A stretch of 64,000 nucleotides of DNA from the NCBI GenBank assembly GCA_964576525.1, contig CAZNVH010000041.1, positions 7,326 to 71,325 of the forward strand, read 5' to 3'. Source of the stretch: an uncultured Enterobacteriaceae bacterium. Lineage in GTDB: Bacteria; Pseudomonadota; Gammaproteobacteria; Burkholderiales; SG8-39. The notes beneath the pieces are model-generated. The model was not told where the DNA came from and did not search any database. It saw only the letters and a program-made list of their open reading frames with translations. This document shows, piece by piece, positions 12,347-48,620 of this stretch (the first letter of the stretch is position 1; each line of letters opens with the position of its first letter). Position numbers and translations under genes: made by a program.

Positions 12347-13056
12347 CCCCGAAATACAAAAGGATCCTTCTCAAGCTGTCGGGCGAAGCCCTGATGGGCG
12401 GGGATCCGTTCGGCATCAACCGGCAGACCATCGAGTCGATCGTCGGCGAGATCGCCCAGGTGTCGCGCATGGGGGTCGAGCTCGGCGTGGTGATCGGCGG
12501 CGGCAACATCTTCCGCGGGGTGGCGCCGGGCGCCGCCGGCATGGAGCGGGCGACCGCCGACTACATGGGAATGCTCGCGACCGTGATGAACGCGCTCGCC
12601 CTGTCGGACGCGATGCGCCAGGCCGGGCTGGCGAGCCGGGTGCAGTCGGCGCTCAACATCGAGCAGGTGGTGGAGCCCTACATCCGCGGCAAAGCGATCC
12701 GCTATCTCGAGGAGGGCAAGGTGGTGATCTTCGCCGCCGGCACCGGCAACCCGTTCTTCACCACCGACACGGCGGCCGCGCTGCGCGGCAGCGAGATCGG
12801 CGCCGAGATCGTGATCAAGGCCACCAAAGTCGACGGCGTGTACAGCGCCGATCCGAAGCGCGATCCGCGCGCCGAGCGCTACGCGCGCATCAGCTTCGAC
12901 GAGGCGATCGCGCGCAACCTGCGCGTGATGGACGCCACCGCGCTGACGATGTGCCGCGACCAGAAACTGCCGATCGCGGTGTTCAGCATCTTCAAGCCGG
13001 GCGCGCTGCGCCGGCTGGTGCTCGGCGAGGACGAAGGCACGTTGGTTCACGTATGA
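12343..13056 (+). CDS. pyrH: UMP kinase
   Basis: TTG start overlaps tsf TGA; [31 protein letters not shown]. Confidence 0.96.
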
Positions 13057-13072
13057 TGGCGCGGAGGTCTCC

Positions 13073-13633
13073 ATGGTGATTGCGGATCTCAAGAAGACCG
13101 CCGAGCAGAAGATGGACAAGAGCGTCCAGGCGTTCAAAGGCGACCTGGCGAAAGTGCGCACCGGGCGCGCGCACACCGGGCTGCTCGACCATATCAGCGT
13201 CGACTACTACGGCACGCCGACGCCGCTCAACCAGGTCGCCAAAGTGGTGCTGCTCGACGCGCGCACCATCGGCGTCACCCCGTTCGAGAAGAAGATGGGG
13301 CAGGCGATCGAGAAAGCGATCCGCGATGCCGAGCTCGGGCTGAACCCGGCGGCGAGCGGCGACACGGTGCGGGTGCCGATGCCCTCGCTGACCGAGGAGC
13401 GGCGCAAGGAGCTGATCAAGGTGGTGCGGCACGAAGCCGAGAACGCGCGCGTGGCGGTGCGCAACCTGCGGCGCGACGCGATTCATCACCTGAAGGACGC
13501 GCTCAAGAAGCACGAGGTTTCCGAGAACGACGAGCGCCGCGCGCAGGACGAGGTGCAGAAAATGACCGACCGCCACGTCACCGAGATCGACAGGCTGCTG
13601 CAGCAGAAGGAAGCCGAGCTGCTGGCGGTATGA
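13073..13633 (+). CDS. frr: Ribosome recycling factor
   Basis: [21 protein letters not shown]. Confidence 0.97.
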
Positions 13634-14397
13634 GCGCGGACAGCTCGACGCGCGGCATCCCCGAGCATGGCGACGCGCCGCGCCACGTCGCCATCATCAT
13701 GGACGGCAACGGCCGCTGGGCGCGGCGCCGGCACCTGCCGCGGCTCGCCGGCCACCGGCGCGGGGTGGAGGCGGTGCGCGCCACGGTGCGCGCCTGCGCC
13801 GAGCGCGGCATCGGCTTCCTGACCCTGTTCGCCTTCAGCTCCGAGAACTGGCGCCGCCCGCCCGAGGAGGTGGCGCTGCTCATGAAGCTGTTCGAGGCCG
13901 CGCTGTCCAGCGAGGTGGACAAGCTGCACCACAACGGCGTGCGGCTGAAGGTGGCGGGCGACACGCTGTGCTTCGACCCCAAGATACGCCGCCTGATCGA
14001 GCAGGGCGAGGCGTTGACCGCGCAGAACCAGGGCCTGACGCTCACCATCGCCGCCAACTACGGCGGCCGCTGGGACATCCTGCAGGCGCTTACTCGTCTT
14101 TTGAAAGAGAAGAATTTTTCGGGGGAAGAAATTCGCGAGGAGATGCTGGCACCGTATCTCGCCATGAGCTACGCGCCCGAGCCGGACCTGTTCATCCGCA
14201 CCGGCGGCGAGCAGCGCGTCAGCAACTTCCTGCTGTGGCAGCTCGCCTACACCGAGCTCTACTTCACCGAGACGCTGTGGCCGGATTTCGACGCCGCGGC
14301 GCTCGACGAAGCGATCGCCTCGTACCGTCAGCGCGAGCGGCGCTTCGGCCGCACCAGCGAGCAGGTCGAGCAAGCGAAGCGCCCCGAGGTCGCCTGA
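13630..14397 (+). CDS. uppS: Undecaprenyl diphosphate synthase
   Basis: [40 protein letters not shown]. Confidence 0.96.
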
Positions 14398-35169: not shown

Positions 35170-35197
<28 letters not shown>

Positions 35198-36132
35198 AGT
35201 TTCGCCCGGTCCGGGGCGAGCACCACGCCTTTCTCGCAGATGATGCCGGTGATCAGCTCGGCGGGCGTGACGTCGAACGCCGGATTGCGTACCTTGACGC
35301 CCTCGGGCGCCCAGCGCATGCCGCGGTAGCCGGTGACCTCGGCCGCCGGGCGCTCCTCGATCGGGATGTGCGTCCCGTCCGGGATCTTCGGATCGAAGCT
35401 CGACAGCGGCGCTGCGACATAGAACGGGATGCCGTGGCGCTTCGCCAGCACGGCGAGGGTATAGGTACCGATCTTGTTCGCGACGTCGCCGTTCGCGGCG
35501 ATGCGGTCGGCGCCGACCACGACCACGTCCACCTCGCCGCGGCTCATCAGGTGGCCGGCCATGCTGTCGGTGATCAGTGTGCACGGAATGCCTTCCTGCA
35601 CCATCTCGTAGGCGGTGAGCCGCGCGCCCTGCAGGTACGGCCGTGTTTCGCACGCGAGCACGGAAATGGATTTACTTTTTGAAGATCTAATAACTCCCAA
35701 AGCTGTTCCATACCCTGCCGTCGCCAGCGCGCCGGCGTTGCAATGGGTCATGACGCGCGCCTTGTTCGGAATCAACTCGGCGCCGAGCCTGCCCATGGCG
35801 TGATTCGCTGCAAGATCCTCGGCGAAGATCGCCTCGGCCTCGGCTTTCAGGTCCTTGGCTTTCTTCATCCGGTCCAGCGCCCAGAACAGGTTGACCGCCG
35901 TGGGGCGGCTCTTGGCCAGGACCTCGAAGGAGGAAGGAGATCCTTTGTCCAGGGCCACGCCGAAAGCCGCGGCGCAGCCGATCGCCGGCGCTCCGCGTAC
36001 CACCATGTCGCGGATCGCCTGCGCGACTTCCGCGGCGCCGCGGCAGGTCACGTAGACGGTCTGGTCGGGCAGCAGCCGCTGGTCGAGGAGATCCAGGCGG
36101 TCGCCGTACCAGCGGATCGGCTCGACCGTCAT
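35170..36132 (-). CDS. mtnA: S-methyl-5-thioribose-1-phosphate isomerase
   Basis: [68 protein letters not shown]. Confidence 0.94.
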
Positions 36133-38099
36133 TAGACGACGCGCTCGTTGCCGCCGTCGACCGGCACCTGGGCGGCGGTGGTCTTGGCGAAGAGCGGCCC
36201 GCACATTTCGGCGGCGAGCTCGGCGACGTCTTTCGACGCCACCTCGGTCTTGAGCAGGTTCTTCCTGCGGTACTGCTCGACGCTCAGGTTGTAGGCCTTG
36301 GCGCGCGCCGCGAGAAGCTCCTCGGTCCACAGCCCGGTGTCGTACACCGCGTCGGGGTGCAGCGAGTTGATGCGGATGCCGTCCTTGGCCCATTCCAGCG
36401 CGGCGACCCGCGCGACCTGGTTGAGCGCTGCTTTGGATGCCGAATAGGCGCCAGCCCCCGGCCCGGGCGCCGGCACGTTGCGCGAGCCGATCACCACGAT
36501 GCGCCCGCCGTGCGGCGCGAGCTTGAGCAGCGGATGACACAGCTGCAGCAGGCGCAGCGGCGCGTCCAGGTTGACGGCCATGGTCTGCCGCCAGGTGTCG
36601 AGGGCGATGTCCTGGACCGGCTGGGAGGAGGGGAAGATCCCGGCGTTGAGCACCAGCATGTCGAGCCCGCCGAAGCGCTGCACGGCCTTTTCCAGGGAAT
36701 CGTTGAGCGCGCCAGAATCCGTGAGATCGCAAGCCAGGCCGAGAAACGCGGGATCGGCACACTGCGTTTCTATGGCGGGATTGCGATCCAGGCCGACGAC
36801 CGCCGCTCCGCGCCGGAGAAACGCCTCCACGCACGCCTTGCCGATGCCCGAGGCGGCGCCGGTCACCAGGGCGACTTCGCCGGCGAACGCCGGCGGCGGG
36901 CCTGCTTTGCGCTTGGCCTGCTCGAGCTGCCAGTACTCGACGTCGAAGAGGTGCTTTTCGTCCACGGCGCGCCAGCCGCCGAGCGCCTCGGCGCGCAGGA
37001 TGACGTCGATGCTGTGGTCGTACAGCTCCTCGATGATCGTGGTCTCCCGCGCGCTGCGGCCGACGGCGGCGAGGCCGAGCTGCGGATCGAGCACGACCCG
37101 CGGCGCGGCGTCGAGCATTGCCTTCGGCTCGCCGGCGCCCTTGGCGTGGCGCTGGAAATACTGACGATAACTCTTGGCGTAGGCCGCCACGTCGCGCCCG
37201 AGCATCGGCGCCGGCTTGGTGAACAGCAGGTGATCCGGCGTCGCCGGGCCCTGCTGCGCGAGCTTCTGCAGGTCCGGGCGTTGGGCGAAGGCGAGGAATT
37301 TGTCGCTGCTACTGACCCGCATGAGCATCGGTACCCCGGCCTGCTCCGAAATCGCTCGCCTGAGGCTCGCGACGTCCTCGTTCTTCGGCGCCGTCGCCGG
37401 TTTCGGAGAAAACGCGAGCTGCCAAGCTTTTTTCTTCCCCAGGTACTCCTCGGCCATCGACACCAGCTCGATCATGCGCTCATAGGATTCGCGCGCCTCG
37501 GCGCCGAAGGAAAAGATGCCGTGCGACAGCAGCACCATGCCGACGGTGTGCTTTCCCGCCTGCTTCGGAAACTCGCGCGCGCAGCGCGCGGCGAGCTCGA
37601 AGCCTGCCATGACGTAGGGGATGACGACCACCCGCTCGCCATAGATCTCGCGGATGCGCTTCTCGCCCTGCGGCGCGTTGGAGATCGCCAGCATCGCGTC
37701 GGCGTGCGTGTGGTCGACGTAGCGGTGCGGCAGGATTGCGTGCAGGATGGTCTCGACCGAGGGCGAGGGCGCGCCGGCGCGCAGCACGTGCGTGTTCAGC
37801 TCGTTCAGCATCTGCGCGTCGGAGAGCGACGGCAGGCGCGCGAGCTTCTGCATGGCGGCGAGCGAGACCGGGGTGAAGCCGGCCGGCTCGATGGTCTCGA
37901 GGTCCGAGCCGCTGCCCTTGACGTAGAGCACCTCGCGCTCCTCGCCGAACAGGTCCTTCTCGCGCAGCTTGACCGAAGTGTTGCCGCCGCCATGCAAGAC
38001 GAGCGCTCGGTCGCGTCCGAGCAGGCGCGAGGTGTAGACGCGCGGCCCGAGCAGGCCGTCGAACTGCGCCGCTTCGGCGTCGCTCCAGCGACTTTTCAT
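36132..38099 (-). CDS. Bifunctional class II aldolase / short-chain dehydrogenase (RhaD-ADH/YuxG-like fusion)
   Basis: [15 protein letters not shown] and HG metal ligands; C-terminal [19 protein letters not shown]. Confidence 0.9.
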
Positions 38100-38122
38100 G
38101 CCGCGATTATACTTTTCGCGCC

Positions 38123-38539
38123 ATGCTGCGAATTGAGCTTCTGTCCTGGGAAGGCGCGCGCGTCCATGCGAGCCTGATCCGTTTCACCGTGTTCGTGGAA
38201 GAGCAGGGCGTGCCGCGCGAGATCGAGCTCGACGAGCAGGATGCGGTTTCGGTTCATGGGGTGGTGTTCGATCGGGAGAAGGCCGTGGCGACCGGCCGGC
38301 TGCTGCCCGACGGCCACATCGGCCGGATGGCGGTCCTCAAGGAGTGGCGCGGCCGCGGCGTGGGCGGGCTGATGCTGAAAAGCCTCATGCAGCGCGCCAA
38401 GGAGCGCGGCGACGCCGAGGTGGTCCTTTCGGCGCAAGTCCATGCCAGGGCCTTCTACCGGGCGCACGGCTTCGCGGAGGAGGGGGCCGAATACATCGAA
38501 GCGGGAATTCCGCATCAGACCATGAAGCACCGGTTCTAG
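38123..38539 (+). CDS. GNAT family N-acetyltransferase
   Basis: FVEEQGVP, IGRMAVLKEWRGRGVG, FYRAHGF, IPHQTM. Confidence 0.9.
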   Translation: MLRIELLSWEGARVHASLIRFTVFVEEQGVPREIELDEQDAVSVHGVVFDREKAVATGRLLPDGHIGRMAVLKEWRGRGVGGLMLKSLMQRAKERGDAEVVLSAQVHARAFYRAHGFAEEGAEYIEAGIPHQTMKHRF

Positions 38540-39195
38540 AACTCGTAGTGCAGGGTATCGCCCGGGGCACCGTCCGGGGCGAAAACGCGCTCGGCATAGC
38601 GGGTCCGCAGACCCTTGAGCAGCACGGTCGAGCAGCGCGTGCCGTAGGCCGGGCTGAGGATGCGCGCCGGCGCGAGCGCCCCGAACAGGGTCTCGACCGC
38701 GGGCGCTTGCTCGAGGATCTCCCGAAAGCGCGTCTTGGCGTCATCGACCTCTGGGGCATCGAGCAGCGTGTTGCCCAGGCCGTAGATCCCGGGCCCCAGC
38801 CGCCGCGGCGGACCGTCGCGGTTCGACATCGACCAGAGCTCCTCGCCGTCGCTCACCAGCAGATTGAAGCCGCTGTATTGGTCTGCCTTTATTTGCCGGA
38901 GATGCGCAGCCGGCTTTTCATTCCCATCCAGAAAGCTCGTCACCAGCGCCCCGCGCGACTCGGCGGCGCGCGCTTCATGGGCGCCGCGATAGTTGGTCAC
39001 CGCGGCAAATCTTCCCGAGCGGGAAATACCCATCCAGGTGCCGCCCGCCTCGAGGTCCCGCCCGGCGAGGATTTCCGGGTGGTCGGCCCAGAAGGCCGCC
39101 GGGGCGGCGGGACGGGCGTGGAACTCGTCGCGGTTCGCCGCGACGATCAACGGAAAATCAGGACGAGTGCGCCAGGCGAGAACGATCAGGCACAT
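38536..39195 (-). CDS. NRDE/TANGO2 family protein
   Basis: MCLI start, [29 protein letters not shown]. Confidence 0.92.
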
Positions 39196-40072
39196 TCCGG
39201 CTCTTCAGCTGCTGGTAAAGCTGGAACGCCTGCTGCGGCTTCTCCTTGCGGTGGACCACCGCGCCGACCGCCTGGATCATCGCCACCGGGTCGTCGGACT
39301 GGAAGATGTTGCGCCCCATGTCGACGCCGGCCGCGCCCTGGTCGAGCGCCTTGTACGCCATGGTCAGGGCGTCGAGCTCCGGGAGCTTCTTGCCGCCGGC
39401 GATCACGATCGGCACCGGGCAGCCGGCGACCACGCGCTCGAAGCCTTCCTCGATGAAGTAGCTCTTGACGTAGTGCGCGCCGAGCTCGGCGGCGATGCGC
39501 GTGGCGAGGCCGAAGTAGCGCTCGTCGCGCTTCATCTCGGCGCCGACGCCGGTGACGGCCATGGTCGGGATGCCGTAGCGGTTGCCGCTGTCGATGAGCT
39601 GCACCAGGTTCTTGATCGACTGGTGCTCGTATTCGGCGCCGATGTAGATCTGCGTGGTGATGGCGCAGGCGTTGAGGCGGATGGCGTCCTCGATGTCCAC
39701 CGCGATCAGCTCGCGCGACAGCTCGGTCAGGATGCTCTGGCCGCCCGAGCAGCGCAGGACCAGCGCGTTGGTGGAGGAGGGGGGGATCACCGAGCGCAGC
39801 GCGCCGCGGGTGCACATCAGCACGTCGGCGTAGGGGATGAGCGGCACGATGTTGAGGTCCATGCGCTCGAGGCCGGTGGTCGGCCCCTGGAAGTAGCCGT
39901 GGTCGAAGGCGAGCATCACGGTCTTGCCCGAGGCCGGGTTGAAGATGCGCGCCAGGCGGTTCTGCATTCCCCAGTCGAGCGCGCCGCCGCCCTTCACGAA
40001 GAAGGGATGGTTGACCTGCGGTACGCCGATGCCGAAGTCCTTGCCTTCTCGGATGTCGTCTTTATCGGCCAT
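39158..40072 (-). CDS. lsrF: LsrF-type thiolase (class I DhnA aldolase fold)
   Basis: [57 protein letters not shown]. Confidence 0.88.
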
Positions 40073-44465: not shown

Positions 44466-45770
44466 ATGAGGAGATACCGGGACGACCCGGGCGCGCTGCA
44501 GGCGCTGGTAGAAGCCGACCGGGTGCACCGCGACGTCTATATCGACGCGGAAGTCTTCCAGCTCGAGATGGAACGCCTGTGGGCGCGGACCTGGATCTAT
44601 GTCGGCCACGAAAGTCAGGTGCCGCAGCCCGGCGACTACATCACCGCCGACATCGCGGCGAAACCGGTGATCGTAGTGCGCCATACCGACGGCAAGGTGC
44701 GCGTGCTGATGAACCGCTGCGCCCACAAGGGCACCAAGGTCGTGGGAGACCTCGTGGGCAATACCGGCAAGACGTTCCGTTGCCCGTACCACGCGTGGAC
44801 TTACCGTACGGACGGTTCCCTCCTGCAGGTTCCGCTCAAGGGCGGTTATGAAGGAACCCGGGTCTACGAAACCGAGGCCGGTCGTGGCCTGGCGCGCGTC
44901 ACCCACGAGACCTATCGCGGGTTCGTGTTCGCCCGCCTCGCCCCCGGCCCGGGGTTCCGCGAGTACTTCGGCGATTCGCTCTCCTCCATCGACAACCTCG
45001 CCGATCGCTCGCCGGAGGGCGAGCTCGAGATCACCGGCGGCTGCCTGCGCTACCTGCACAACTGCAACTGGAAGATGTTCGTCGAGAACCTGAACGACAT
45101 GATGCACCCGATGATCGTGCACGCCTCCTCCGCCGGCACTGCGAAACGGCTGTGGGAAGGCCAGCCGGCGGACCGTCCCAAGCCGATGGCGGTCGAGCAG
45201 TACGCGCCCTTTGCCAACGACTACAAGTTCTTCGATGACATGGGGGTGCGCGTTTACCCGCACGGCCACGGCTTTTCCGGGGTGAATTTCTCGATCCATT
45301 CTTCGTACTCGGCGATCCCGGACTACGAGGAGGCGATGAAGCGCGCCTACGGCGCGGAGCGTGCGCAGCAGATCCTGGGCACGGTGCGCCACAACACCGT
45401 CTACTACCCCAGCCTCACCATCAAGGGCGCGATCCAGTCGATCCGGGTGGTGCGGCCGCTTGCCGCCGACAAGACGCTGATCGAGTCCTGGACTTTCCGC
45501 CTCAAGGGCGCGCCCGACAAGCTGCTCGAGCGCACGGTGATGTACAACCGGCTGATCAACTCACCCATGTCGGTGGTCGGCCACGACGACCTGCACTGCT
45601 ACCGCTCGGCGCAGGAAGGCCTCGCCGCCCCTGGGAATGAATGGGTGAGCCTTCACCGGAATTTTAATGAAAGTGAATTGAACGAAAAAGAACTCATCTG
45701 CAACGGCACCAGCGATATCTCCATGCGCAACCAGTTCCGCGCCTGGAGGGAATTCATGGCGGCCGGATGA
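44466..45770 (+). CDS. Rieske aromatic ring-hydroxylating oxygenase alpha subunit
   Basis: Rieske ligands CAH..CPYH; mononuclear Fe motif NLNDMMHPMIVH; distal Asp in GHDD. Confidence 0.92.
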   Translation: MRRYRDDPGALQALVEADRVHRDVYIDAEVFQLEMERLWARTWIYVGHESQVPQPGDYITADIAAKPVIVVRHTDGKVRVLMNRCAHKGTKVVGDLVGNTGKTFRCPYHAWTYRTDGSLLQVPLKGGYEGTRVYETEAGRGLARVTHETYRGFVFARLAPGPGFREYFGDSLSSIDNLADRSPEGELEITGGCLRYLHNCNWKMFVENLNDMMHPMIVHASSAGTAKRLWEGQPADRPKPMAVEQYAPFANDYKFFDDMGVRVYPHGHGFSGVNFSIHSSYSAIPDYEEAMKRAYGAERAQQILGTVRHNTVYYPSLTIKGAIQSIRVVRPLAADKTLIESWTFRLKGAPDKLLERTVMYNRLINSPMSVVGHDDLHCYRSAQEGLAAPGNEWVSLHRNFNESELNEKELICNGTSDISMRNQFRAWREFMAAG

Positions 45771-46240
45771 GCGAAGCGGACCTGATTCGCTTCGTCCTGC
45801 GCGAGGCGCGCCTGATCGACGAGAAGCGCTTCGACGAGTGGTACGAGCTGTTCGCCGACGACGCCTATTACTGGGTTCCGATCGCTCCCGGGCAGAGCGA
45901 TCCGCTGGGCCACAACTCGCTCGCCTACGAGGACAAGTTCCTGCTCAAGCTGCGCATCGAGCGGCTGAAGCAGCCGAACGCCTTTTCGCAGAAACCGGCG
46001 AGCCGCTGCCAGCACCTGCTGCAGACCCCGGAGCTGGAGAAGTCCGACGCGGCGCGCGGCGAGTACCTGATGCGCACGCCGTTCATCTATACCGAGACCC
46101 GCGGCGACGATTCGCAGCGCTATGCCGCAACCGCCTGGCACACGTTGGTTACTTCAGACGCCGGGCTGCGCATCCGCCTGAAGCGCGTGGACCTGCTGAA
46201 CTGCGACGCCGCCCTGCCCTCGATCCAGCTTTTCCTGTGA
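45767..46240 (+). CDS. Ring-hydroxylating oxygenase beta subunit
   Basis: EARLIDE.RFDEW, YYWVP, KRVDLLN; ATGA overlap with alpha. Confidence 0.9.
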   Translation: MSEADLIRFVLREARLIDEKRFDEWYELFADDAYYWVPIAPGQSDPLGHNSLAYEDKFLLKLRIERLKQPNAFSQKPASRCQHLLQTPELEKSDAARGEYLMRTPFIYTETRGDDSQRYAATAWHTLVTSDAGLRIRLKRVDLLNCDAALPSIQLFL

Positions 46241-46953
46241 GCGCGGCGCTCGTCACCGGCGGCAGCGCGGGCATCGGGTTGGCGGTCGTGCAACGGCTGC
46301 TGGATTCCAATGTTGAGGTTTTTTCGTTGGACGTGCAGCCGCCGCCGGCAGCGCATCAAAAGCTGAATTACGTGAAGGTGGATCTCACCGACACCGCCGC
46401 GACGAGAAAAGTCTGCGAAGACCTCAGGAACCGCAGGATCACCACGTTGATCCACAACGCCGGGACAATCCGCCCTGCTCTCCTGCCCGACGTCAAGCTC
46501 GAGGACTTCGAGGCGCTGGTCCACCTGCACCTTTCGGCGGCGATCCTGCTGCTGCAGGCGACGCTGCCGGCGATGAAGGCCGCGGGCTACGGCCGCGTGG
46601 TGCTGGTGTCCTCCCGGGCGGTGCTCGGCCTGCCCACGCGCACGTCGTACTCGGCGACCAAAGCCGGCATCCTCGGGATGGCGCGCACCTGGGCGCTCGA
46701 GCTCGCGCCGCAGGGGATCACGGTCAACGTGGTGGCGCCGGGGCCGATCGAGACCGACAACTTCCACAGCATCGTGCCGCGCGGCAGTCCCCAGGTCGAG
46801 CGCATCGCGCAGGGCATCCCGGTGAAGCGGTTGGGCCAGCCGGCCGACGTGGCGCGCGCGGTGCTGTTCTTCGCCGACCGGGAAAACAGCTTTGTGACCG
46901 GCCAGGTGCTGTACGTCTGCGGCGGCACCAGCGTCGGCAGCCTGGCGCTCTAG
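46237..46953 (+). CDS. Short-chain dehydrogenase/reductase
   Basis: GTG start; TGGSAGIG, HNAG, YSATK. Confidence 0.9.
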   Translation: MSAALVTGGSAGIGLAVVQRLLDSNVEVFSLDVQPPPAAHQKLNYVKVDLTDTAATRKVCEDLRNRRITTLIHNAGTIRPALLPDVKLEDFEALVHLHLSAAILLLQATLPAMKAAGYGRVVLVSSRAVLGLPTRTSYSATKAGILGMARTWALELAPQGITVNVVAPGPIETDNFHSIVPRGSPQVERIAQGIPVKRLGQPADVARAVLFFADRENSFVTGQVLYVCGGTSVGSLAL

Positions 46954-46958
46954 GCCGA

Positions 46959-48620
<1,662 letters not shown>

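Follow-up and report, generated by a model that had tools for sequence, protein, structure and literature searches.

We analyzed a 64,000-nucleotide stretch of DNA from an uncultured bacterium of the Burkholderiales (assembly GCA_964576525.1, contig CAZNVH010000041.1, positions 7,326 to 71,325; hereafter, the window). On its minus strand, a gene for a 655-residue fusion of a class II aldolase-fold module to a short-chain dehydrogenase/reductase (SDR) is followed by mtnA, which encodes a 320-residue S-methyl-5-thioribose-1-phosphate isomerase (Table 1). The two open reading frames (ORFs) share the junction TAATG: the last A of the fusion's stop codon (TAA, 36134-36132) is the first base of the start codon of mtnA (ATG, 36132-36130). 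A divergent GNAT gene lies on one side of the pair and a convergent L,D-transpeptidase gene on the other, and we therefore view the pair as a two-gene unit. The original prediction, which was made from the sequence alone, had described the overlapping codons, intact aldolase ligands and SDR motifs, and a TATAAT box of the pair's own; it had also stated that there are no rhamnose or fucose isomerases, kinases, or transporters in the window, and we found none among its annotated genes (about 40 of 51 predicted). All of these observations hold. The pair had been read as a candidate variant of the dihydroxyacetone phosphate (DHAP) shunt, and comparative genomics supports this reading: the fusion is linked to mtnA in two gene orders, and a paralogous fusion is independently linked to mtnK-mtnA.

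Table 1. Features at the fusion-mtnA locus (positions in the window; aa, amino acids; nt, nucleotides).
Feature	Position	Strand	Remarks
mtnA	35170..36132	-	S-methyl-5-thioribose-1-phosphate isomerase, 320 aa; TIGR00512, Pfam IF-2B
Aldolase/SDR fusion gene	36132..38099	-	655 aa; NCBIfam NF006196 'bifunctional aldolase/short-chain dehydrogenase'; Pfam Aldolase_II and adh_short
Classical SDR domain, residues 405-655 of the fusion	36135..36887	-	TGxxxGIG, Asp438 (NAD-type), NAG, Ser539, Tyr552, Lys556
RhaE-type module, residues 1-398 of the fusion	36906..38099	-	Class II aldolase fold and conserved middle region; ends with EYWxLEQAK
-10 box TATAAT	38106..38111	-	Perfect match, 6 nt upstream of the fusion's ATG
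GNAT acetyltransferase gene	38123..38539	+	Divergent; starts 23 nt from the fusion's ATG; neighbor in 60/80 loci
TANGO2/NRDE-family gene	38536..39195	-	Between lsrF and the GNAT gene; neighbor in 58/80 loci
lsrF orthologue	39158..40072	-	3-hydroxy-5-phosphonooxypentane-2,4-dione thiolase; NF006081, 499 bits (cut-off 297)

The fusion protein and MtnA

The fusion protein belongs to NF006196 (PRK08324.2-4), as it scores 1015 bits over residues 1-655 and the curated cut-off is 831. The Pfam domains Aldolase_II and adh_short match residues 22-220 (E = 2e-21) and 409-592 (E = 2e-43), respectively. We assign zinc-site and phosphate-site roles in the N-terminal module to the motifs GGGNTS (at residue 37), KGSG (within KGSGS, 61), PSVE (113), DHTH (129), and SHG (192). 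The SDR motifs are TGAASGIG (413), GLDRN (436), NAG (485), GSRN (538), and YSASK (552), and the aspartate within GLDRN (Asp438) is the usual mark of a preference for NAD. In our alignment, these catalytic motifs are all intact and are kept across the subfamilies. The N-terminal module ends with a conserved EYWxLEQAKL at about residue 398, and RhaE-type modules of this kind (400 amino acids) also occur as stand-alone proteins in Sinorhizobium meliloti and Sagittula.

In profile searches, the N-terminal module matched only PRK08324/RhaE-type models and then, weakly, RhaD (E = 0.002). The nearest relatives of the SDR domain were enzymes that act on beta-hydroxy or beta-keto compounds. When we compared the N-terminal module to the sequences in the PDB, the best match was 3m4r, an uncharacterized domain, and there was no link to FucA, RhaD, DrdA, or MtnB. 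(Matches to DARPins in this search were judged to be spurious.) An AlphaFold2 model that was built from an alignment of 16 sequences was of low confidence (pLDDT 51, pTM 0.38) and was unusable.

MtnA scores 418.9 bits against the equivalog model TIGR00512 (cut-off 279), matches Pfam IF-2B with E = 5e-81, and matches PDB entry 1t9k with E = 1e-103. Its score against the model for ribose-1,5-bisphosphate isomerase is below that model's own cut-off. The catalytic residues Cys131 and Asp209 are invariant across 64 fusion-linked MtnA sequences. We also note that MtnA is about 25 residues short in the window's clade, with deletions in the N-terminal domain after residues 64 and 93; the linked MtnA proteins of more distant loci have about 340-346 amino acids.

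Conservation of the linkage

A scan with one genome per species yielded 80 loci with fusions at 62-77% identity, mostly from metagenome-assembled genomes of Burkholderiales/Betaproteobacteria and including Nitrosovibrio and Nitrosomonadaceae. Five of these loci end too early to judge if mtnA is present, which leaves 75. In 63 of the 75, mtnA is immediately downstream of the fusion gene and on the same strand. Among the 61 junctions that could be measured, 33 are overlaps (of -1, -4, or -17) and another 18 have a gap of 0-30 nt. Because this coupling is kept, the TAATG junction in the window is not a chance pairing. The linkage is not sporadic, and no rhamnose genes were found beside these fusions.

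More distant members of the family are informative about how the linkage arose. Metagenomic loci whose fusions are 45-58% identical are still above the cut-off for NF006196; distant members that pass it include L093, L128, and L130 (numbering is ours). In two of the metagenomic loci, L130 and L143 (42% G+C), the order is mtnA-fusion-lsrF, with spacers of 19 nt and 36 nt. In a neighbor-joining tree, the deepest split in NF006196 has mtnA-linked fusions on either side, in the two gene orders, which points to selection for the linkage and not just to inherited synteny. Plasmid and chromid records contained distant relatives of the fusion only (<42% identity).

Promoter and genomic setting

The sequence aaaGTATAAT, which includes the -10 box, is kept in nearly all of the related loci. 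It lies 6-8 nt upstream of the start codon of the fusion in closer loci and 25-35 nt upstream of it in distant loci. Since TATAAT is conserved in a genome of high G+C (67% in the window), we take it as good evidence for a real promoter, which is probably constitutive. A sigma-70 scan gave no match to a -35 box and no two-hexamer promoter upstream of the fusion. As the box is so near to the start codon, it suggests that the fusion-mtnA mRNA of the window's clade is leaderless or nearly so.

The annotated genes in the window are mostly housekeeping genes: smc-zipA, glnD-map-rpsB-tsf, uppS-cdsA-rseP, lpxD-lpxB, ppsA, smpB, guaB-guaA, mltG-tmk-holB, uvrC, pdxJ-recO-era-lepB, and degP-rseB. The only exception is a patch for aromatic catabolism (44466-48589), which contains genes for the alpha and beta subunits of a Rieske dioxygenase, a FAA-hydrolase family protein, and a 3-hydroxyanthranilate 3,4-dioxygenase. 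This setting, along with the conserved TATAAT, fits the salvage of by-products better than a nutrient island. Of the genes for canonical methionine salvage, no mtnB, mtnC, mtnD, mtnW, or mtnX is among the annotated genes of the window.

The GNAT gene has a TATACT 9 nt upstream of its start codon, so its promoter and that of the fusion would overlap back to back (38100-38125). The GNAT and TANGO2 genes were considered as members of the pathway and rejected because their synteny does not extend beyond the Burkholderiales and L128, L130, and L143 lack them. At the other end of the pair, mtnA and the convergent L,D-transpeptidase (YkuD) ORF share 28 nt at their 3' ends (35170-35197), and there is no terminator-like site between them.

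Association with LsrF

We identified a candidate third component that the original prediction did not include: the LsrF orthologue that is encoded 1 kb upstream of the fusion, beyond the GNAT and TANGO2 genes and in a separate transcription unit from fusion-mtnA. It is 69% identical to LsrF from Escherichia coli K-12 over 286 residues, without gaps, and the 3' end of its gene overlaps the start of the TANGO2-family gene. No other component of the Lsr system (lsrK, lsrR, lsrACDB, or lsrG) is found around it.

Across the 80 genome loci, lsrF is within 10 kb of the fusion gene in eight, with three arrangements. It is at a position like that in the window in L005, L009, L020, L031, and L041; it is directly downstream of mtnA and on the same strand in L074 and L065; and it is 2 kb from a fusion without mtnA in L062. 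(The LsrF-like gene of L065, at 13050-13895, is missing 19 residues, the conserved YVK stretch among them, and could reflect a pseudogene or a misassembly.) The converse search, from LsrF, returned 80 metagenomic loci, of which 18 are canonical lsr operons and 62 are not. A full-length fusion (NF006196 or NF006194) is present in 14 of those 62, including in mtnA-fusion-lsrF operons. Among the other 48 loci, there are 15 in which the gene immediately after lsrF encodes a Zn-dependent alcohol dehydrogenase (such as L103, L105, L111, and L122), and eight have a SDR, a Dak1/Dak2 kinase, and a LsrG-like ABM protein (such as L096, L100, L101, and L104). So LsrF-type thiolases outside of lsr operons are regularly paired with a dehydrogenase, and the latter two groups look like uncharacterized dehydrogenase-thiolase pathways.

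RhaE-type modules that are not fused to a SDR are also associated with AI-2 (autoinducer-2) or LsrF genes. In the lsr (AI-2) operon on pSymB of S. meliloti (L167, 7001-8251), a 416-residue RhaE-type module follows lsrB, which is the position of lsrF in E. coli. No homologue of LsrF or LsrG is present in this 15-kb locus, and the module may be a non-orthologous displacement of LsrF. (A survey from 2008 gave the alpha-proteobacterial lsr operon as lsrBDCARKG.) On plasmid p3 of Sagittula sp. MA-2 (L168, 3847-9176), we observed a GlpD-like dehydrogenase, a FGGY kinase, lsrF, and a RhaE-type aldolase of 397 residues whose start overlaps the stop of lsrF; this cluster follows genes for a sugar ABC transporter and for a SorC regulator. 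Separately, five high-G+C contigs (L145, L146, L158, L162, and L163) have lsrF followed by a gene similar to ribulose-phosphate-3-epimerase and by a NF006194-type fusion, and the cluster in L158 adjoins a sulfatase and a GH130 gene.

Related families of fusion proteins

RhaEW proteins (NF006189/TIGR02632) have the same architecture and cleave rhamnulose-1-phosphate. The original prediction drew on them as an analogy, and we can now set the window's fusion apart from them. It scores 429.3 bits against TIGR02632 (RhaD_aldol-ADH), whose cut-off is 567.75, and a RhaEW from Rhizobium scores 1205. A true RhaEW is 33% identical to the window's fusion, and its locus (L083) includes rhaI, rhaM, rhaS, a FGGY kinase, and a DeoR regulator.

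The paralogous equivalog family NF006192 is 38% identical to the window's fusion. In Ensifer (L082) and Shinella (L085), its genes lie in clusters with the order SorC regulator, fusion, sugar ABC transporter, mtnK, mtnA; the cluster in Ensifer also includes a transketolase. The MtnK and MtnA proteins of these clusters pass their equivalog cut-offs (for MtnK, 493 bits against TIGR01767). In Rhizobium sp. RCAM05350, the fusion is about 6 kb from mtnA, and in S. meliloti (L084), ABC-mtnK-mtnA is kept and the fusion is absent. These clusters look like the E. coli-type DHAP shunt (uptake, MtnK, MtnA, and an aldolase) with the aldolase replaced by the fusion. Further members of the superfamily are in unrelated clusters for polyols or glycerol-phosphate, so the superfamily is functionally diverse.

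Proposed pathway

5'-Deoxyadenosine and 5'-methylthioadenosine (MTA) are unavoidable and inhibitory by-products of radical S-adenosylmethionine (SAM), polyamine, and acyl-homoserine-lactone chemistry. We propose that fusion-mtnA is a constitutive two-gene operon for the disposal and salvage of such 5-deoxy-pentose by-products of SAM, as a variant of the DHAP shunt. Given the conserved linkage and the family assignments, we put the probability of this at roughly 70%.

We predict the following substrates, products, redox direction, and order of steps. A phosphorylase or kinase that is encoded elsewhere in the genome would act on 5'-deoxyadenosine or MTA. MtnA would convert the resulting 5-deoxyribose-1-phosphate and/or 5-methylthioribose-1-phosphate to the corresponding ribulose-1-phosphates. 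The fusion would then take the place of the FucA-like aldolase Ald2/DrdA and would convert the ketose-1-phosphate and NAD+ to DHAP and an oxidized two-carbon fragment, which could be acetate, methylthioacetate, or their CoA esters. The RhaEW enzymes of Chloroflexus and Bacillus provide the analogy: in vitro, they convert rhamnulose-1-phosphate with NAD+ to DHAP and L-lactate, and they are inactive with NADH (PMC3870299). By this analogy, the default order would be aldol cleavage at the zinc site, after which the SDR domain would oxidize the (hydrated) aldehyde. As the aldehyde would be oxidized on the same polypeptide, no free toxic aldehyde would be released. We hold this order tentatively, at slightly less than even odds.

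Several points weigh against the proposed pathway or against its default order. First, we found no mtnP, mtnK, or mtnN in the window, so the supply of substrate to MtnA is assumed; these genes may be encoded elsewhere in the genome. Second, 12 of the 75 informative loci have no adjacent mtnA. All 12 belong to the most distant orthologues (from Acidobacteriota, Chloroflexota, Sulfuricaulis, and 'Muproteobacteria'), and the genes next to these fusions are unrelated, and never rhamnose genes. Third, much of the support from the 63 linked loci comes from a single order, the Burkholderiales, so the synteny is partly inherited. Fourth, in profile searches, the N-terminal module has no detectable similarity to models of the FucA-like Ald2/DrdA. 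Fifth, the products of MtnA are 3R,4R (as for FucA) and the substrate of RhaEW is 3R,4S. Finally, if cleavage comes first, then LsrF, which is a recurrent partner, has no place in the scheme.

Alternative explanations

The disposal of the aldehyde, as originally predicted, could instead be an oxidation at C4 that feeds a LsrF-type thiolase. This is a variant of our proposal and not a rival to the pathway as a whole. The SDR domain would act first, as a ketose-1-phosphate 4-dehydrogenase, and would oxidize the C4 hydroxyl of 5-deoxyribulose-1-phosphate (CH2OP-CO-CHOH-CHOH-CH3) to give 3-hydroxy-2,4-pentanedione-5-phosphate (P-HPD; CH2OP-CO-CHOH-CO-CH3). By structure, P-HPD is 4-dehydro-5-deoxyribulose-1-phosphate, and it is a known substrate of LsrF. 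Either the LsrF orthologue would cleave P-HPD with CoA to DHAP and acetyl-CoA, or the zinc module would cleave the ketone in its hydrated form, with DHAP and acetate as products. There is also a precedent: OtnC, which has a class II aldolase fold, cleaves a beta-keto acid phosphate to yield DHAP.

Oxidation before cleavage would account for four observations. One is the association with LsrF: lsrF is 1 kb upstream without other lsr genes, it is near fusions in three arrangements, fusions are found in 14 of the 62 non-canonical LsrF loci, and other such loci encode a Zn-dependent alcohol dehydrogenase or a SDR with a Dak kinase and a LsrG-like protein. Another is the RhaE-type module of S. meliloti at the place where lsrF is expected. 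The third is that RhaEW did not form DHAP when NAD+ was omitted (PMC3870299). The fourth is that the closest relatives of the SDR domain are beta-hydroxy/beta-keto enzymes. However, lsrF is missing from the 10 kb around the fusion in about 90% of the fusion-mtnA loci. The zinc-site motifs are intact even in fusions beside lsrF, which implies that the zinc module has a role of its own, and Sagittula encodes LsrF and a RhaE-type module in coupled genes, which speaks against a simple exchange of one for the other. Also, the published reading of RhaEW is that the aldolase acts first. Overall, we consider oxidation as the first step to be less likely than not, and somewhat less likely than cleavage as the first step.

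It is improbable that this MtnA-like isomerase acts on a pentose phosphate that does not derive from SAM, such as an AI-2-like compound (phospho-4,5-dihydroxy-2,3-pentanedione, or P-DPD) or a 1-deoxy-pentulose phosphate, in a pathway that converges on LsrF. MtnA is clearly above the cut-off of the MtnA equivalog and is below that of the ribose-1,5-bisphosphate isomerase model, and the paralogous cluster encodes a bona fide MtnK. These argue against such a substrate despite the association with LsrF, the presence of related modules in lsr-like and polyol clusters, and the functional diversity of the family.

A role like that of MtnB is very improbable. In this scenario, the Aldolase_II domain would dehydrate methylthioribulose-1-phosphate and the SDR would process the diketone, which would be a new route to regenerate methionine. 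MtnB is in the same Pfam family as the N-terminal domain, mtnA is adjacent, and mtnB, mtnC, and mtnD are missing from the window. But the N-terminal domain matches PRK08324/RhaE-type models, and RhaD weakly, and no MtnB model; the characterized relatives yield DHAP; and the fusion is associated with LsrF, which is a DHAP-forming enzyme. The domain also has a glutamate 14 residues before the HxH motif, which is also the arrangement in FucA and RhaD.

It is hardly credible that the fusion is an ordinary RhaEW (a rhamnulose-1-phosphate aldolase/lactaldehyde dehydrogenase) that is beside mtnA by accident: despite the shared two-domain architecture and the Joint Genome Institute's annotation of homologues as 'rhamnose utilization protein RhaD', its score is under the TIGR02632 cut-off (429 vs. 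568), it is just 33% identical to RhaEW from a rha locus, there are no rha or fuc genes in the 64 kb, and the coupling to mtnA is conserved.

Significance

If the pair has the proposed role in salvage, then it would add a third layout to the DHAP shunt, for which only two have been described, and it would combine cleavage and redox disposal on one polypeptide. The layout is common among Burkholderiales from soil and fresh water, including ammonia oxidizers, and the operon is found in dozens of soil bacteria. The family NF006196 is already catalogued, without an assigned function, and the literature that we found points to the recycling route not having been described before. In particular, a review from 2018 of methionine salvage does not mention an aldolase-SDR fusion, a review from 2026 gives the enzyme that reduces the aldehyde from the DHAP shunt as unknown (PMC13474568), and full-text searches found no paper that ties an aldolase-SDR fusion or LsrF to MtnA, MtnK, or 5-deoxyribose, although an earlier mention is possible.

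Our proposal gives a testable function to NF006196 and probably to NF006192, as well as to the LsrF orthologues of bacteria that lack the Lsr system and to the odd dependence of RhaEW on NAD+. If oxidation does precede cleavage, then waste from radical-SAM enzymes would enter central metabolism without a free aldehyde ever being formed, and LsrF would have a housekeeping role outside of AI-2 quorum-sensing operons. The entire RhaEW family would then be re-read as a dehydrogenase and a beta-diketone-cleaving enzyme, instead of as an aldolase and an aldehyde dehydrogenase.

Comparison with known systems

The described variants of the DHAP shunt are initiated by MtnP or by MtnN/MtnK and use a FucA-like Ald2/DrdA aldolase (PMC6079011, PMC10986504). 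As in the shunts of Rhodospirillum rubrum, extraintestinal pathogenic E. coli (ExPEC), and Bacillus thuringiensis, a MtnA-type isomerase would catalyze the committed step, a metal-dependent enzyme with the class II aldolase fold is encoded beside the isomerase, and we expect DHAP to be produced. The role would also be the same: the disposal of the by-products MTA and 5'-deoxyadenosine (PMC6079011, PMC10986504, PMC13474568). Unlike in those shunts, where Ald2/DrdA is a FucA-like protein of about 215 amino acids, a 400-residue RhaE-type module is fused to a SDR, and this module gave no FucA/Ald2-type match in profile searches. Also, the cluster contains no gene for a kinase or phosphorylase, in contrast to MtnP or MtnN and MtnK in the known shunts. 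Probably, an acid or an acyl-CoA is formed instead of a free aldehyde or alcohol, and the LsrF thiolase might provide an extra step.

The fusion shares with RhaEW (YuxG; TIGR02632/NF006189) its full-length architecture and its conserved zinc-site and SDR motifs, and it probably also performs a NAD+-coupled conversion of a ketose-1-phosphate to DHAP and an acid (PMC3870299). The two differ in that the window's fusion has PSVE where RhaEW has ASID, and at about 33% identity, it scores below the family's cut-off. Among the loci that we examined, the fusion is linked to mtnA (and lsrF) and is never in a rha locus. The stereochemistry of the substrate at C4 should differ as well.

The proposed use of LsrF resembles the LsrF/LsrG step of AI-2 catabolism in E. 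coli, as the window encodes an orthologue of LsrF, the intermediate would be P-HPD, and the products would be DHAP and acetyl-CoA. The source of P-HPD would be different: it would arise by the dehydrogenation of 5-deoxyribulose-1-phosphate, whereas in E. coli it arises by the isomerization of phospho-AI-2.

A further parallel is with the NF006192 clusters of Rhizobiaceae (Ensifer and Shinella), in which an aldolase/SDR fusion is also genetically linked to mtnA. Unlike the pair in the window, the NF006192 cluster is plasmid-borne and catabolic: it includes mtnK and genes for a SorC regulator and a sugar ABC transporter, and in some cases for a transketolase. This gene content suggests that 5-deoxy or methylthio pentoses are taken up from outside the cell.

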